From: Candidatus Colenecus caballi
GTDB taxonomy: Bacteria; Bacteroidota; Bacteroidia; Bacteroidales; Bacteroidaceae
Assembly (NCBI GenBank): GCA_018065615.1
Contig: JAGHSY010000033.1
Location: forward strand, 8,210 to 72,209
DNA length: 64,000 nucleotides
Direction of reading: 5' to 3'
Shown: one piece after another, positions 3,037 to 45,665 of the stretch
Layout of the letters: each line of letters opens with the position of its first letter
Numbering within the stretch: the first letter of the stretch is position 1
Position numbers and translations under genes: made by a program
The notes under the pieces: model-generated
Database searches by the model: none
Told to the model about the DNA's origin: nothing
What the model saw: the letters and a program-made list of their open reading frames with translations, nothing else

Positions 3037-4245
3037 ATGTTCAATCTGGACAAATTCATTTCCGACAGCGTAACCGGACGTCCTGCCAGCATGTTTGAAA
3101 AAGACATACTGGACAATAGCCGTCTGTTGTCCGATGAAATAAAAGGAAAATCAGTCTGTGTGATTGGCGGAGCCGGTTCAATCGGTTCAAGCTTTATCAA
3201 AGCTGTTCTCAAGTTTGAACCGGGCAAGGTCGTGGTCATCGACCTGAACGAAAACGGACTGGCTGAACTTGTCCGTGACATACGGTCAACAGAAGGACTG
3301 TTCTGTCCCGATGAATTCCGATGCTACACTCTTAATTTTGCAGATCCTATATTTGAACGCATCTTCCGTGAAGAAAAAGGTTTTGACATAGTGGCCAACT
3401 TCTCGGCCCACAAGCATGTCCGCTCTGAAAAGGACCGCTATTCAGTTCAGGCACTCATTGAGAACAATGACATCAGGGCAAAGAAACTGATGGACCTGCT
3501 GACTGTCTTTCCGCCAAATCACTTCTTCTGCGTCAGTACCGACAAAGCTGCCAACCCGGTCAATATAATGGGAGCATCGAAACGCATCATGGAAGACCTG
3601 GTCATGGCCTATAACAGATACTTCAAAGTCACGACAGCCAGATTTGCAAATGTAGCATTCAGCAACGGATCACTTCCTGACGGATGGATTCACAGGCTCC
3701 AGAAAAAACAGCCCCTTGCTGCTCCTTCAGATGTCAAACGCTATTTTGTATCTCCAGAAGAATCCGGTCAGATATGTATGCTGGCCTGTATTCTCGGAAA
3801 AGGCGGTGAAGTGTTCTTTCCAAAACTTGGCGAAGACCAGATGCTGACCTTCAGCGCTATCTGTGATGACTTTGTAAAGGCCGAAGGCTTCAGAAAGGTT
3901 GAATGCAGGAATGATTCCGAGGCCAGGAAGTTTGCCGCTGACATGTCCTATGAATCTGAGGATTATCCGGTGGTATATTTCAAAAGTGACACCACAGGTG
4001 AGAAAGCATATGAAGAATTCTATGTTCCGGGTGAAAGAATAAGCTTGGACCGTTTCCATGCGCTTGGCGTCATTGAAGAATCTGCCCGCAGAACGATGGA
4101 TGAGGTGAATGCCTTCTTCACTGGCCTTGAGGCTCTGTTTGCTGAAGAGGATTTCACCAAGGCACAGGTCGTCAATGCCATAAGACAGTTCATCCCGAAC
4201 TTCGAACATGAGGAAAAGGGTAAAAACCTTGATCAGAAAATGTAA
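3037..4245 (+). CDS. nucleotide-sugar 4,6-dehydratase (Polysacc_synt_2 / CapD-PglF-LgaA-like)
   Basis: Rossmann VIGGAGSIGSS and the family signature CVSTDKAANPVNIMGASKR. Confidence 0.8.
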   Translation: MFNLDKFISDSVTGRPASMFEKDILDNSRLLSDEIKGKSVCVIGGAGSIGSSFIKAVLKFEPGKVVVIDLNENGLAELVRDIRSTEGLFCPDEFRCYTLNFADPIFERIFREEKGFDIVANFSAHKHVRSEKDRYSVQALIENNDIRAKKLMDLLTVFPPNHFFCVSTDKAANPVNIMGASKRIMEDLVMAYNRYFKVTTARFANVAFSNGSLPDGWIHRLQKKQPLAAPSDVKRYFVSPEESGQICMLACILGKGGEVFFPKLGEDQMLTFSAICDDFVKAEGFRKVECRNDSEARKFAADMSYESEDYPVVYFKSDTTGEKAYEEFYVPGERISLDRFHALGVIEESARRTMDEVNAFFTGLEALFAEEDFTKAQVVNAIRQFIPNFEHEEKGKNLDQKM

Positions 4246-25041: not shown

Positions 25042-25083
25042 AACCGTTGCGGTAACTGATAACCAAATGTCCATTTAGGTTCG

Positions 25084-25230
25084 ATGAACAAAAAAGGCAG
25101 TGATTTTGTTCATGGAAGCAGAAAACGGAAGAACCTCGAGAAGGTAACCCCATCCACAAGGCCTATAGGAGGGGTGGCTACAGCGGACCTGTTATCGTGG
25201 AACAAAAAAGATGGTAATTTTGTTCCTGTA
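25084..25230. repeat. two GAACAAAA..TTTTGTTC hairpins spaced 114 nt apart, related to the 35.6 kb tandem array
   Basis: ATGAACAAAA-N10-TTTTGTTCAT (GAACA at 25086) and GGAACAAAA-N10-TTTTGTTCC (GAACA at 25200). Confidence 0.6.
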
Positions 25231-33264: not shown

Positions 33265-35607
33265 ATGAAAACCCGAAACCTGTTATTTTCACTTTCACTT
33301 GCACTGGCTCCAATTGCCGCCGGTGCACAAGTCAAGACTAATGTCACGTTCTACACGCCTGACATTGTGCGCATTCAAAAGACCTGGTCCGATGCCCCGC
33401 GCCGGGACCTTTCCGTAATCATGCAGCCAGGACAGGTCAAAGTCAGCCGGTCCGGTGACACTTACAAGTCTTCAGAACTGACCGTGAAAGTCAGTGCAGA
33501 CAATGAAGTTACATTCCTTGACAGCAAGGGAAACATTCTGCTTGCCGAAGGCGCTTTTGAGGCAGGAAAAGCCGCCAGACCTGAAGACGCGTCCGCCAGC
33601 CAGTCATTCAAGACCGATGCCGACGAACCCATATACGGCCTGGGCATACTGCAGGAAGGCCGCATGGACATGCGTGGAACCGACCGCCGCATGATTCAGG
33701 GCAACACCGATGACTACTGCAACATTATCCAGTCCATCAAGGGCTACGGTCTGTTCTGGGACAATTATTCACCCACTACCTTCCGCGCATCGGACTCAGG
33801 ATTCACATTCGCATCCGAAAACGGCGGACAGATTGACTATTATTTCATATACGGCGGCAATGCTGACGGCGTCATTGCAGGCATACGCCAGCTGACAGGC
33901 ACTGTACCCATGCTACCGCTCTGGAGCTACGGGTTCATGCAGAGCCGTGAGCGCTACAAGTCAAGCGCCGAACTGCTTGAGGTTCTGACAAAATACCGCC
34001 AGACGGGCGTGCCCATTGACTGCATGATCCAGGACTGGCAGTACTGGGGTAACAACTATCTTTGGAATGCCATGGAGTTCAATGCCGATGAATTCCGCAA
34101 TCCCGAACGCTGGATAGGACAGATACACGGCATGAACGCCAAACTTATGATTTCAATATGGTCATCTTTCGGCCCCATGACCAAGCAGTACCGCGAACTT
34201 CAGCCCAAGGGTCTGCTGCTCGATTTCCAGACATGGCCCCAGAGCGGCCTTACCGACTGGCCTCCAAGAAGGGACTATCCGTCAGGCGTACGTCCGTATG
34301 ACCCGTTCAGCCAGGAAGCACGTGACATATACTGGAACCACCTGACCCGCCTGCATGACCTTGACATTGACGGTTGGTGGATGGATTCCACAGAGCCGGA
34401 CCACATGGATTTCCAGGAAAGCGACCTGGACCTGTCCACAGCTATGGGTCCGCTGCGGAATGTCCGCAACGCCTATCCGCTCATGGCAGTAGGCGGCGTC
34501 TATGACAACCAGCGCAAGGTGGACAGCGGCAAGCGCGTCCTTATCCTTACCCGTTCGGTCTTTGCCGGCCAGCAGCGCTACGGCTCCAACACCTGGTCAG
34601 GTGACGTGCAGTCCAACTGGGAGAGCTTGAGAAAACAGGTACCCGCCGGCCTGAACTTTGCCCTGACCGGCAACCCCAACTTCAACAGCGACCTGGGCGG
34701 ATTCTTTGCCAACAGTTACAACGAACGCTCACAGGACTGGTCAGCCGTCAGGAACCCGCTGTATCAGGAACTCTACACCCGCTGGATGCAGTACGGCATA
34801 TTCTGCCCCATGATGCGCAGCCACGGCACGGAAGTTCCGCGTGAACTGTACTATTACGGTGAAGCCGGCCAGCCCGTTTACGATGCCCTGCTGGGTGCTG
34901 TCAAAAAACGCTACAGCCTGCTCCCCTACATCTACTCGCTGGCACATGAAGTCAGCGCCGGCAACGGCACATACCAGCGCGCCCTGATCATGGACTTCAA
35001 GTCCGATAAGAACGTGTGGGACATGGGTACTGAATTCATGTTCGGCCGCTCAATCCTTGCTGCTCCTGTTCTGAACGCCCTCTACACTCCTGAAAGAGCT
35101 GTCAGCAAGAGCCGCTCAGGCATAGGTGACGTTGATTTCACCGAAATGAAGACGGTTAAAGTCTATCTTCCCGCAGGTGCCAGATGGTATGATTTCGATT
35201 CCAACAGACTGTATGAAGGCGGTCAGGAAATAGAGCGTGAAGCCAATCTGGCCACCGTTCCCATGTACCTGAAGGCCGGCAGCATTCTGCCCATCGGACC
35301 CGATGTCCAGTATTCGACCGAAAAGCCGTGGGATGACCTTGAGATACGCGTCTATGCGGGTGCAGACGGCACATTCTGCCTGTATGAGGACGAATTTGAC
35401 AACTACAACTATGAGGACGGCAAGTTCACGACCATTGACTTTATCTGGAACGACAGAAGCGGCAGCCTGACCATTGCAACCCGCAAAGGCCAGTATGACG
35501 GCATGCTCCAGAACCGCCAGTTCCGCGTGATTCTGGTTAAGGACGGAGTGGAAAAAGCAGCAAAGACAGTAAAATATTCCGGCAGAAAGGTCAGCGTCAA
35601 GCTGTAA
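33265..35607 (+). CDS. glycoside hydrolase family 31 (alpha-xylosidase/alpha-glucosidase type)
   Basis: Signal peptide. DIDGWWMDSTEPD and MRSHG regions are paralogous to the neighbouring GH31. Confidence 0.88.
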   Translation: MKTRNLLFSLSLALAPIAAGAQVKTNVTFYTPDIVRIQKTWSDAPRRDLSVIMQPGQVKVSRSGDTYKSSELTVKVSADNEVTFLDSKGNILLAEGAFEAGKAARPEDASASQSFKTDADEPIYGLGILQEGRMDMRGTDRRMIQGNTDDYCNIIQSIKGYGLFWDNYSPTTFRASDSGFTFASENGGQIDYYFIYGGNADGVIAGIRQLTGTVPMLPLWSYGFMQSRERYKSSAELLEVLTKYRQTGVPIDCMIQDWQYWGNNYLWNAMEFNADEFRNPERWIGQIHGMNAKLMISIWSSFGPMTKQYRELQPKGLLLDFQTWPQSGLTDWPPRRDYPSGVRPYDPFSQEARDIYWNHLTRLHDLDIDGWWMDSTEPDHMDFQESDLDLSTAMGPLRNVRNAYPLMAVGGVYDNQRKVDSGKRVLILTRSVFAGQQRYGSNTWSGDVQSNWESLRKQVPAGLNFALTGNPNFNSDLGGFFANSYNERSQDWSAVRNPLYQELYTRWMQYGIFCPMMRSHGTEVPRELYYYGEAGQPVYDALLGAVKKRYSLLPYIYSLAHEVSAGNGTYQRALIMDFKSDKNVWDMGTEFMFGRSILAAPVLNALYTPERAVSKSRSGIGDVDFTEMKTVKVYLPAGARWYDFDSNRLYEGGQEIEREANLATVPMYLKAGSILPIGPDVQYSTEKPWDDLEIRVYAGADGTFCLYEDEFDNYNYEDGKFTTIDFIWNDRSGSLTIATRKGQYDGMLQNRQFRVILVKDGVEKAAKTVKYSGRKVSVKL

Positions 35608-35644
35608 CTCCAAACCAGAATACAGCTTTTCGCCAAAGCAGTAA

Positions 35645-36080
35645 ACAGACATGTGTCTCAGAAGCTTTGTGAGCGGGGTGTCATTTCCAAAGTCGGTGTC
35701 ACCAGAGCAATCCTTGAACAAAAAAGCACCGTTATTTGTTCATGGAATTCGGTTGCGCAGAAGCCATGTGCCTCAGAAGCCTTGTGGACGGGGTGTCATT
35801 TCCAAAGTCGGTGTCATTGACCAAACCTTGAACAAAAAGGTGCCGTTATTTGTTCTTGGAATACGGTTACGCAGAAGCCATGTGCCTCAGAAGCCTTGTG
35901 AGCGGGGTACCATTTCCAAAGTCGGTGCCATTGACCAAACCTTGAACAAAAAGGTGCCGTTATTTGTTCTTAGAATACGGTTACGCAGAAGACATGTGCC
36001 TCAGAAACCTTGTGAGCGGGGTGTCATTTTGAAAACCGGAATACTGGAACAAAATACAGGCACTTTGTGTTCCAGGATTT
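35645..36080. repeat. tandem repeat array, ~3.8 units of 114-115 bp, each with a GAACAAA-N12-TTTGTTC hairpin
   Basis: CATGTG anchors at 35650, 35765, 35879 and 35993. Hairpin GAACA at 35716, 35830, 35944 and (degenerate) 36047. Units are near-identical and the last one decays. Confidence 0.9.
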
Positions 36081-36340
36081 CTTAAACAGAGCGGGCAGTC
36101 GCCAGTGACGGCAAGGCGGATTCACATGGCACCCATTCGGGTCTCCTGTGACTCGGGAAACGCCCGAGCCACAAATACAACGAACCTGCGCATCACCTCC
36201 CCAATGAAATTTCCACTCCATGTTTGCTGCTTTGGCGGAAACCACCACAATCCATCAACGTTATAATTAATTAATGTATGAGAAACATCGGCGCGCTCCT
36301 TTTTTGATTACCTTTGCCGGACTTATCATCAATCCAAACG

Positions 36341-37765
36341 ATGACTGAATTTGAAATGATTGCCAAGACCTTCCAGGGGCTGGAAGAGATTCTTGCAAAG
36401 GAACTTATTGAACTTGGAGCCAATGGAGTGGCCATTGGCAACCGCATGGTATCATTCAAGGGTGACAAAGCCCTGATGTATAAAGCCAATTTCTCCCTGC
36501 GTACCGCAATACGCATTCTCAAACCCTTTCTGCATTTCCACGCTGACAGCGCCGATGAAGTCTATGAAATCTGCAAGACCAAGGTCGAATGGGAAAAGTA
36601 CATGTCCCTGTCTGACAGTTTTGCCGTTGACGCAGTAGTCAACAGTGAGGACTTCAAGCACTCAAAGTTCGTGGCATACCGTGTCAAGGACGCCATTGCG
36701 GACTGGTTCCGTGAAAAATACGGCAAGCGCCCCAACGTTAGCGTGGCAAACCCGGACCTTACCTTCCACATTCACATATCACATGACGACTGCTCACTGT
36801 CATTGGACAGCAGCGGCGAATCACTGCACAAGCGCGGCTACCGTCAGGAAGCCATGGAGGCTCCCCTGAACGAGGTCCTTGCAGCCGGCATGATTCTCAT
36901 GTCAGGCTGGGACGGCAAGTCCGATTTCACCGACCCCATGTGCGGCAGCGGCACCATACCGATTGAAGCCGCCCTTATTGCCCGCAACATGGCACCCGGC
37001 CTGTTCCGCAGCCAGTTCGCCTTTGAGAAGTGGAAGGACTTTGACCGCGACCTGTTCGAATCGATCTACAACGATGACAGCCAGGAGCGCCCGTTCGAAT
37101 TCCACATTCGCGCATACGACAAGGATCCCAAGGCCATTGCGGTTGCAAAGCGCAACGCCAAGGCCGCCGGCCTGCAGGACATGATAGAGTTCGATGTCCG
37201 CGACTTCAAGGACTTTGAACCAATAAAGGAACGCACCGTCATGATTACCAATCCGCCTTACGGTGAGCGCCTGACTGATGACAACCTGCTGGGACTGTAT
37301 GAAATGATAGGCGAACGTCTCAAACACGCTCTTATGGGCGGTGAAGCCTGGATTATAAGTTACCACTACGAATGCTTTGACAAGATAGGACTCAAGCCAA
37401 GCGCAAAAATTCCCCTTTTCAACGGTGCTCTTCCCTGTGAACTGCGCAAGTATGAAATCTTTGAAGGCAAGTTCGGTGAGTTCCGCGGCGGCGGCCGCCG
37501 GCTGAAGAAGGACGATCTGCCCACACGCCGCAGCACCACCCTGCGTTACAAGGCCCGCCTTGAGGAGAAGAAGCAGGAAAGTGAAACCGTAGAGGAAAAG
37601 AAGCCGTTCAGAAAAGACGGTGAACGCAAGCCGTTCAGAAAGGACAGCGAAAAGAAGCCTTATCGCAAGGACGGTGACAGGAAACCGTTCCGTAAGGACG
37701 GACAGAAGCCCGCTCAGAAGCGCACATACAGCAAAACCAAACCAACAAACAGAAACAAAAATTAA
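36341..37765 (+). CDS. THUMP-domain class I SAM-dependent RNA methyltransferase (RlmL/RlmK-like) with basic repeat tail
   Basis: Start chosen at MTEFEMIAKTF. DPMCGSGTIPIEA (SAM motif I), ITNPPYGERL (motif IV), and a C-terminal K/RKPFRKDG x4 tail. Confidence 0.82.
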   Translation: MTEFEMIAKTFQGLEEILAKELIELGANGVAIGNRMVSFKGDKALMYKANFSLRTAIRILKPFLHFHADSADEVYEICKTKVEWEKYMSLSDSFAVDAVVNSEDFKHSKFVAYRVKDAIADWFREKYGKRPNVSVANPDLTFHIHISHDDCSLSLDSSGESLHKRGYRQEAMEAPLNEVLAAGMILMSGWDGKSDFTDPMCGSGTIPIEAALIARNMAPGLFRSQFAFEKWKDFDRDLFESIYNDDSQERPFEFHIRAYDKDPKAIAVAKRNAKAAGLQDMIEFDVRDFKDFEPIKERTVMITNPPYGERLTDDNLLGLYEMIGERLKHALMGGEAWIISYHYECFDKIGLKPSAKIPLFNGALPCELRKYEIFEGKFGEFRGGGRRLKKDDLPTRRSTTLRYKARLEEKKQESETVEEKKPFRKDGERKPFRKDSEKKPYRKDGDRKPFRKDGQKPAQKRTYSKTKPTNRNKN

Positions 37766-45287: not shown

Positions 45288-45665
45288 GTGCGAAAAAATT
45301 TGGATAAGTTGTTCAGTGTCGCTAAGTTTGCTGCCATGGATGCACAGACTCAGGAAAAATATCTAGCCCAGATAATGTGGGAATGGGATCAGGAAAGTCA
45401 GATTTATACCGGCTATATGGACGGCATGGAGAAGGGTCTTGCAGATGGTAGGGCAAAAGGACTGAAGGAAGGGCGTGCGGAAGGGCGTGCGGAAGGACGT
45501 GCGGAAGGACGTGCGGAAGGACGTGCGGAAGGACTGATAGAAGGGCGTGCGGAAGGCATGGCCCGAATCATTGATACAGCAAAAGCAATGAAAGCCCACG
45601 GCATATCAGAAGAAATCATAGAACAATGCACAGGATTAAGTCTTGAAGAAATCTATGAATTGTAA
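45288..45665 (+). CDS. Rpn/PD-(D/E)XK-transposase-family C-terminal fragment (probable gene remnant)
   Basis: GTG-initiated ORF. The (EGRA)n tract and GISEEIIEQCTGLSLEEIYEL tail resemble the C-terminus of Bacteroidales Rpn-family proteins. The N-terminal nuclease domain is absent, because only 30 nt separate it from the upstream gene. Confidence 0.5.
   Translation: MRKNLDKLFSVAKFAAMDAQTQEKYLAQIMWEWDQESQIYTGYMDGMEKGLADGRAKGLKEGRAEGRAEGRAEGRAEGRAEGLIEGRAEGMARIIDTAKAMKAHGISEEIIEQCTGLSLEEIYEL

Follow-up and report, generated by a model that had tools for sequence, protein, structure and literature searches.

The feature described here lies in a window of 64,000 nt (the whole stretch of DNA that was analysed) from the genome of Candidatus Colenecus caballi. 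It is flanked upstream by a GH31 glycoside hydrolase gene (33265-35607, plus strand; Pfam Glyco_hydro_31) and downstream by a gene for a THUMP/RlmL-like RNA methyltransferase (36309-37765 with its promoter box included, plus strand). The GH31 stop codon (35605-35607) is separated from the first repeat unit by 42 nt (35608-35649). The methyltransferase gene has retained its Bacteroidetes -7 promoter box (TACCTTTG, 36309-36316), which is the sole box of the form TAnnTTTG at this place, none being present within the repeat feature, and judged by alignment with the start in relatives its start codon is likely the ATG at 36341. Further tandem repeats detected in the window with Tandem Repeats Finder are in frame with coding sequence and are located at the 3' end of the methyltransferase gene (37595-37701, 27/54-nt period) and at 45457-45556 (12/36-nt period).

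The array between the two genes was recovered by Tandem Repeats Finder at 35650-36029, with a period of 114, 3.3 copies, 90% matches, no indels and a score of 611. Reading of the sequence bore out the original prediction of a repeat of about 114 bp with CATGTG anchors (35650, 35765, 35879 and 35993), internal sub-repeats (CAGAAGCC and GGTGTCATT, each present twice in every unit) and an embedded GAACAAA-N12-TTTGTTC hairpin. All units are on the plus strand. Internal unit 1 (35650-35764, 115 nt; hairpin at 35716-35741) is a hybrid, the 3' half of which is of the same type as the first unit of the copy on contig C64 of the same genome. Internal units 2 (35765-35878, 114 nt; hairpin at 35830-35855) and 3 (35879-35992, 114 nt; hairpin at 35944-35969) share 93.9% identity, which points to a local duplication, and unit 3 is the positional orthologue of the last internal unit of the C64 copy (93% identity).

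The fourth anchor opens a terminal unit (35993-36095, plus strand), which resembles the internal units over its first 37 nt or so and consists of distinct sequence thereafter, with a hairpin CTGGAACA..TGTTCCAG at 36044-36075. What had been taken for decay of the last unit is thus a switch, at about position 38, to a separate module that recurs at eight other loci (C1, C31, C54, C100, C103, C108, C119 and, in part, C4). Together with the next 120 nt or so it is conserved there at 83-97%, so that the feature extends to 36217 and not, as first delimited, to 36080. Behind the terminal unit follow a conserved tail (36096-36198, plus strand), which contains a G+C-rich hairpin (GTGACTCGGGAAACGCCCGAGCCAC, 36148-36172) and the motif ACGAACCTGCGCATCACCTC, and a right terminal inverted repeat (36199-36217, minus strand; reverse complement AGTGGAAATTTCATTGGGG) of an ISL3-type consensus, (GGC)TCAGTGGAAATTTAGTGGGGG, whose outermost bases are mutated in the window copy. 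Read inward, the right end is TCAGTGGAAATTTCATGGGGG. The window copy thus comprises 568 bp (35650-36217) and contains no transposase gene; its only open reading frame is one of 144 codons (35651-36085). Neither a left inverted repeat nor the left segment found in other copies is present upstream of 35650, where the GH31 stop codon is only 42 nt away, and since the first unit is represented only by a hybrid, the copy is regarded as 5'-truncated. Its nearest paralogue is the C64/C100 copy (96.7% identity over 242 nt).

The site is filled in the window genome and empty in its relatives. The spacer between the GH31 and methyltransferase genes measures about 35-90 nt in 10 of 11 genomes of the same genus and 235 nt in the eleventh, and it contains only a terminator hairpin and the promoter box; in the window genome about 730 nt separate the GH31 stop codon from the methyltransferase ATG, and the ordinary hairpin terminator of the relatives is missing. 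The unit was likewise absent from the methyltransferase locus in all of 31 further species, each of which shares a 24-mer of the methyltransferase gene (0/31); where the GH31 gene adjoins the methyltransferase gene in these species, the spacer is 34-390 nt long. An exact-pattern scan of the species genomes with the 3' end of the GH31 gene gave no match.

The unit is not unique to this locus, as a neutral minisatellite envisaged in the original prediction would be. A search of the window's own assembly (2.25 Mb, 125 contigs) returned 37 units with nhmmer, weaker relics in addition with a profile search, and 62 hits with a covariance model, far more than expected by chance. The covariance-model hits are distributed over about 14 strong loci and about nine relics, and many of the loci are found at contig ends, which indicates that the repeat breaks the (short-read) assembly. 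All same-genome copies are intergenic; each follows a stop codon at 13-100 nt, and most are flanked by convergent genes. The window itself contains a second, degenerate member of the family (25063-25230, minus strand; covariance model E 2.7e-8), in which two GAACAAAAAA..TTTTGTTC hairpins are spaced 114 nt apart just downstream of another gene.

The loci share a common layout, in which a left segment is followed by one to four units, the terminal unit, the tail and the inverted repeat. The left segment (GTGCGGTTGTAATTCTCGGCGCAGG...) is conserved with a sharp left boundary in five copies, and is followed by a distinct "first" unit and then by zero to three internal units; unit lengths range from 99 to 116 nt across loci and from 113 to 116 nt in the main subfamily. 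The tail of about 120 nt carries the G+C-rich hairpin and ends in ...ATGAAATTTCCACTGA; the right boundary of the copies is at AAATTTCCACTGA, and in seven copies the right inverted repeat stands at a constant distance from the terminal unit. One copy of 537 bp (C119:43284-43820) has both inverted repeats with the array between them, and a left inverted repeat is also present at C54, C64 and C38; the window copy and several others have one inverted repeat only. C54 and C64 differ in the stretch of roughly 100 nt that joins the left inverted repeat to the left segment, and the left end may therefore be a secondary association. Two other origins of the left segment were considered and rejected, namely that it is the N-terminus of a divergent gene (the open reading frames stop or diverge at once) and that it is an inverted right end (only a 9-mer is in common, and 75 of 2000 shuffles score equally well).

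Comparison of units within and between loci suggests the order in which the arrays arose. First units are 86% alike between loci and only 75% alike to their own neighbours, and C30, C64 and C92 resemble one another at 90-93% in their last internal units (C30u3 versus C64u2, 93%). At the same time, the neighbouring pairs C30u2/u3, C119u1/u2 (93.9%) and C39u1/u2 are all about 94% identical. Such positional orthology combined with near-identical neighbours indicates that an element with several units spread first and that units were gained locally later. A contig of another genome, G208 (L034; G208:C105, JAZUEH010000105), matches C54 with 98-99% identity over 8 kb and has an equal unit count. The GH31 and methyltransferase loci of G208 (C109, C137) share only 75-81% identity with the window genome, so that G208:C105 is probably mis-binned and, by its sequence, probably comes from a strain of the window's species; with only this one contig at 98-99% identity, G208 was rejected as a conspecific genome for copy-number variation.

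The family has a narrow distribution. Among 60 species of the genus, the covariance model detected the unit in only one other species (G019), where one array (period 104 nt, 5.2 units) lies between convergent genes; neither the tail nor the inverted repeat was found at this array. A single locus lacking the inverted repeat in one species, against about 20 loci with it in the other, is what would be expected if a MITE had captured the unit and spread it. When 237 genomes from 33 further genera of the same bacterial family were searched with the covariance model, no unit was found; an exact-pattern scan of JGI metagenome contigs for the unit junction and a distant BLAST search of a plasmid collection gave no match either.

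The inverted repeat connects the family to an insertion sequence of the genus. The IS consensus motif GGCTCAGTSGAWATTTAGTGGGGG occurs 14 times in the window genome (reversed control, 0), and 11 of the 14 occurrences are located 77-97 nt from contig ends. These ends are of two types. In end A, an open reading frame MESVLL... starts (seven such left-type ends); in end B, the reverse complement encodes a C-terminus ...AALRGIVDEKFFLFRLASIYAFPH-stop that runs into the repeat (four such right-type ends). Collapsed IS ends, at least 11 in all, are found on C9, C17, C48, C70, C89 and C125 (at both contig ends) and on C33, C34, C44 and C53. The 41-residue C-termini of end B match the last 30 positions of Pfam DDE_Tnp_ISL3 (E 0.003-0.009). 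No body of PF01610 is present in the window MAG, in which only 77-97 nt per IS end are assembled; with the ends at contig breaks and the body missing, the true genome should contain several IS copies that broke the assembly.

A complete element of this type, the only one found, is present in another genome of the genus (L088). It is 1433 bp long, has a 23-nt inverted repeat at both ends and is flanked by a perfect 8-bp target duplication (TATACTAG). Its transposase, which begins with MDSALLALASVVLPDEIL... and ends with ...FFLYRLANIYAYPH-stop, belongs to DDE_Tnp_ISL3 (PF01610; E 1.4e-46 and 2.1e-46), and the IS ends of the window genome encode N- and C-terminal residues of a transposase of the same type. 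The ISL3 family is characterized by a DDE_Tnp_ISL3 transposase, inverted repeats of 15-39 bp and an 8-bp duplication, and L088 agrees with it in all three respects. The transposase gene (L088 948-2325) is split into two open reading frames (948-1367 and 1333-2325), which are in different frames and have 35 nt in common; the split reflects either a frameshift mutation or programmed frameshifting. The repeat family of the window has the same terminal inverted repeat of about 21-23 nt and nothing else in common with L088; it has no transposase, and no 8-bp duplication was detectable at the six short elements examined. In a scan of one genome per species, the motif was found only in horse-gut-type MAGs of Bacteroidaceae, Alloprevotella and Paludibacteraceae, mostly at contig ends.

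An IS982 element was rejected as the partner IS, as the PF13612-like remnant by the inverted repeat in L073 and L077 belongs to another IS and the IS982 copies of G019 lack the ISL3-type inverted repeat. In both places (L073 ~850-953 and L077 ~3500-3620), an IS982-type remnant (GSMGWYHGFKLHFVCS; PF13612, E 9e-6) abuts doubled ISL3-type repeats, an arrangement suggesting that IS of different families were inserted into one another.

Further short elements, mostly in sister genomes, are bounded by the ISL3-type inverted repeat as well, and some of them also contain tandem repeats. Genome G001 has elements with a 50-nt unit, which is present in 3.1 copies in two elements of 352 bp and in 6.2 copies at another locus (L040 2809-3160; L042 193-544; L037 2708-3018), and the Horse_feces25 MAG has elements with a 51-nt unit (L053, L054, L060, L070, L083). 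In the plain short elements L048 (73 bp), L082 (336 bp) and C92 (688 bp; window genome, 31963-32650), no tandem repeat was seen. According to BLAST, the interiors of these families are mutually unrelated. The acquisition of minisatellites seems to recur in elements with the ISL3-type inverted repeat. An 8-bp target duplication was found in none of six short repeat-bounded elements (C92:31963-32650, C119:43284-43820, L040, L042, L048 and L082), whose flanks share no stretch of 5 nt or more. Recombination among the many copies, one-sided deletions or a secondary association of the repeat could each account for the missing duplications, the one-ended copies and the variable left part.

Taken as a whole, the feature is multicopy and modular, and its inverted repeat is the same as that of an ISL3-family IS of the genus. 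We therefore consider it probable that the array is the internal minisatellite of one 5'-truncated copy of a dispersed, non-coding, modular and MITE-like repeat element. The full element would consist of a left ISL3-type repeat with a variable stretch of about 60-100 nt, the left segment (GTGCGGTTGTAATTCTCGGCGCAGG...), the first unit, zero to three internal units of about 114 nt, the terminal unit, the tail of about 120 nt and the right ISL3-type repeat. The window copy appears to have kept only half of the first unit and neither the left segment nor the left inverted repeat, which makes it a 5'-truncated and probably immobile relic. The element would have been spread in trans by the ISL3 transposase, in the manner of a MITE; slippage during replication, or unequal recombination among the units, may later have altered their number; and the element would have no dedicated cellular function beyond incidental effects of its hairpins on neighbouring transcripts. 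MITEs are 50-1000 bp long and carry no transposase gene. The family resembles them in its size and lack of a transposase, in a repeat that matches that of an autonomous IS, and in its many copies with filled and empty sites, but the window copy does not have repeats at both ends and the 8-bp duplication was seen in none (0/6) of the short elements. Among the candidates put forward in the original prediction, a decayed or expanding non-autonomous repeat is the one favoured by the dispersal, the modular layout, the ISL3-type end and the empty sites in relatives; an array of structured RNAs finds little support.

Although the original prediction recognized no named family, a class of analogues is known. 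The BOX elements of Streptococcus pneumoniae, a Firmicute, have the structure boxA-boxB(n)-boxC with a boxB of about 45 nt; they are intergenic, multicopy and hairpin-forming, and are thought to be MITE-like. They resemble the window family in having fixed end modules around a variable number of tandem middle modules, but there is no sequence relation, and the window copy is without one of the end modules. Closer at hand is BrickBuilt, a MITE of Porphyromonas gingivalis (Klein et al. 2015, Mob DNA 6:18; PMC4596501), in which a 23-nt tandem repeat without spacers stands between a leader and a tail and which is present in 19 copies, all intergenic and many of them partial (leader only or tail only; PMC4596501). 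Its inverted repeats (GAGACCTTTGCA-type) match those of the IS5-family elements ISPg1/ISPg9, and its authors concluded that a direct repeat was captured by a MITE and then dispersed with it, and demonstrated promoter activity (PMC4596501). The window family has the same layout as BrickBuilt and BOX, with a leader, spacer-less units and a tail, and with a unit number that varies between copies; with BrickBuilt it further shares a host among the Bacteroidales, IS-like ends, about 10-20 copies, an intergenic location, partial copies and a narrow host range. In contrast, the unit is 114 nt long instead of 23 nt, the inverted repeats are of the ISL3 instead of the IS5 family, and there is no promoter box to compare with the promoter activity of BrickBuilt. 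The repeats of BrickBuilt (PMC4596501, Table 2) are dissimilar to GGCTCAGTGGAAATTT of the window family, which makes it an analogue and not a homologue. Another element of P. gingivalis, MITE464/PgRS, has a 41-nt internal tandem repeat in PgRS (PMC4596501). Like the window family, MITE464/PgRS and the elements of G001 and Horse_feces25 are short, repeat-bounded and equipped with an internal tandem repeat; they differ in unit length and have interiors that are unrelated by BLAST. The elements of G001 (50 nt) and Horse_feces25 (51 nt) have the very same ISL3-type inverted repeat as the window family.

The hairpin deserves separate consideration. The internal unit as a whole folds no better than shuffled sequences (z +1.15 on the plus strand and +0.47 on the minus strand), and folding of the terminal unit and the tail is marginal (z -1.7 and -1.1). 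A consensus structure of 25 units contained only the 7-bp hairpin, invariant and without compensatory pairs. All of 32 units, those of another species among them, have the GAACA..TGTTC stem unchanged, and the stem and a 5' motif have remained constant across the two species and across subfamilies that are only about 65% identical. When terminal units and the units of G019 were added, four pairs at the base of the stem proved compensatory between subfamilies (CCAT/ATGG, CCTT/AAGG, CCTG/CAGG and CTCG/CGAG), with a covariation of 0.139 against 0.093 +/- 0.013 for shuffles (0/500) and 0.009-0.047 for slid controls; they represent only about three to four independent events. An invariant stem with a compensatory base hints at constraint beyond that of neutral junk. 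The hairpin is real and probably constrained as DNA or RNA; beyond it, the unit is no structured RNA. A search of Rfam 15 with region 34500-37500 (E <= 5) gave no relevant match and returned only a chance hit to snoU105B outside the element (E 4.3, 37265-37344); L022 and L023 gave no relevant match either.

REP and BOX elements can act as hairpin-bearing RNA or 3'-UTR elements, and the units might likewise stall exonucleases or terminate transcription, their spread by a transposon being incidental. If the hairpins acted on read-through from upstream, selection would retain those arrays that closely follow a stop codon. Such a role, which we regard as unlikely, would suit the position of the copies (13-100 nt behind stop codons, in most cases with convergent genes on either side), the invariant stem (32/32) with its compensatory base (0.139 versus 0.093 +/- 0.013), and the absence from the window genome of the terminator hairpin that relatives have in the spacer. 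Yet convergent intergenic regions are also the safest place for any insertion, and a 7-bp A+T-rich stem without a U-tract makes a poor intrinsic terminator. Moreover, the unit as a whole folds no better than shuffles and belongs to no Rfam family, and the compensatory changes amount to only about three to four independent events.

The unit's 5' motif has a 22-nt relative, GCTCACAAsGCTTGTGGGGCrC, of which many genomes of the genus contain one site each (reversed control, 0). Such single sites were found in L022 (1480-1630; G014:C14) and in G002, G003, G010, G011, G189, G204, G212 and G215. In L022, the motif lies downstream of a helicase-like gene within a stretch of about 150 nt that is closed by a perfect 15-bp inverted repeat (GCCAAAGTGTCCCAC ... 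GTGGGACACTTTGGC). Such a site may represent a single-copy precursor from which the unit arose, or alternatively a small RNA gene. Together with the invariant stem and 5' motif and the compensatory stem base, the related once-per-genome motif would suit a reading in which the 104-114-nt unit is a selected functional module (a 3'-end hairpin, a small RNA or a protein-binding module) that was captured by an ISL3-type MITE and multiplied about 20-fold in one species. We consider this reading improbable, to about the same degree as a role in the 3'-UTR.

It is considerably less probable that the array serves as a series of sites at which a transposase, a host nucleoid protein or a regulator binds. 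The two near-palindromic motifs CTCAGAAGCCTTGTGAG and TTGAACAAA..TTTGTTCAA are the best-conserved parts of the unit, and the related 22-nt motif is present once per genome in at least nine other genomes of the genus, with none for the reversed control, which speaks for such sites. However, no candidate protein is tied to any array, the near-palindromes are unlike the inverted repeat that a transposase would be expected to bind, a compensatory change at the stem base is not predicted by a protein site, and there is no Bacteroidetes promoter box within the element.

We are equally doubtful that the arrays are REP/BIME-like sequences spread by a RAYT-type (IS200/IS605-like, Y1) transposase, with the ISL3 repeat as a coincidental neighbour. 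Short elements without target duplication, a hairpin in every unit and an array without inverted repeat in G019 would agree with such an origin, and the window genome has a Y1_Tnp-like gene at C75 (36 bits). RAYT (Y1, PF01797) genes are normally flanked by their own REPs, but within 2.5 kb of the gene at C75 there is no unit, hairpin motif or inverted repeat. In seven copies the spacing of the right inverted repeat from the terminal unit is constant, and the units are 114-nt direct repeats, not palindromes of 20-40 nt in alternating orientation.

The remaining alternatives concern the array as such. The 144-codon open reading frame has no Pfam match, consecutive units do not preserve its frame, and different loci have no open reading frame in common, several copies having none of at least 110 aa; together with the varying unit lengths, this confirms the earlier view that the frame is non-coding. 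The units are contiguous and alike over their entire length without unique spacers, and the array is therefore not a CRISPR array, again as originally stated. Contiguous near-identical units, a unit length of 114 nt that is a multiple of 3 and an open frame of 144 codons through the array are what a neutral locus-specific minisatellite, a CRISPR-like array or a protein-coding repeat might offer, but these explanations can practically be dismissed, since the unit occurs at about 20 loci and is not locus-specific, unique spacers are missing, and a repeat of 99-116 nt without Pfam match and without an open reading frame of at least 110 aa in several copies is not protein-coding.

The interpretation of the array as part of a MITE-like element with an ISL3-type inverted repeat places it as a new family within a class of elements that is already known, not as a new kind of genetic system. 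One ordinary element family explains the array, the 255-bp stretch behind it and the hairpin pair at 25 kb, and the element also explains contig breaks in the window MAG and in related MAGs from the horse gut. For annotation, this means that the 144-codon open reading frame should not be called a gene. With its ISL3-type repeat and long unit, the family joins the few bacterial MITEs with a minisatellite in their interior. In related species, three different internal tandem repeats have been acquired by elements with this one inverted repeat, a recurrence that bears on the origin of minisatellites in mobile elements.
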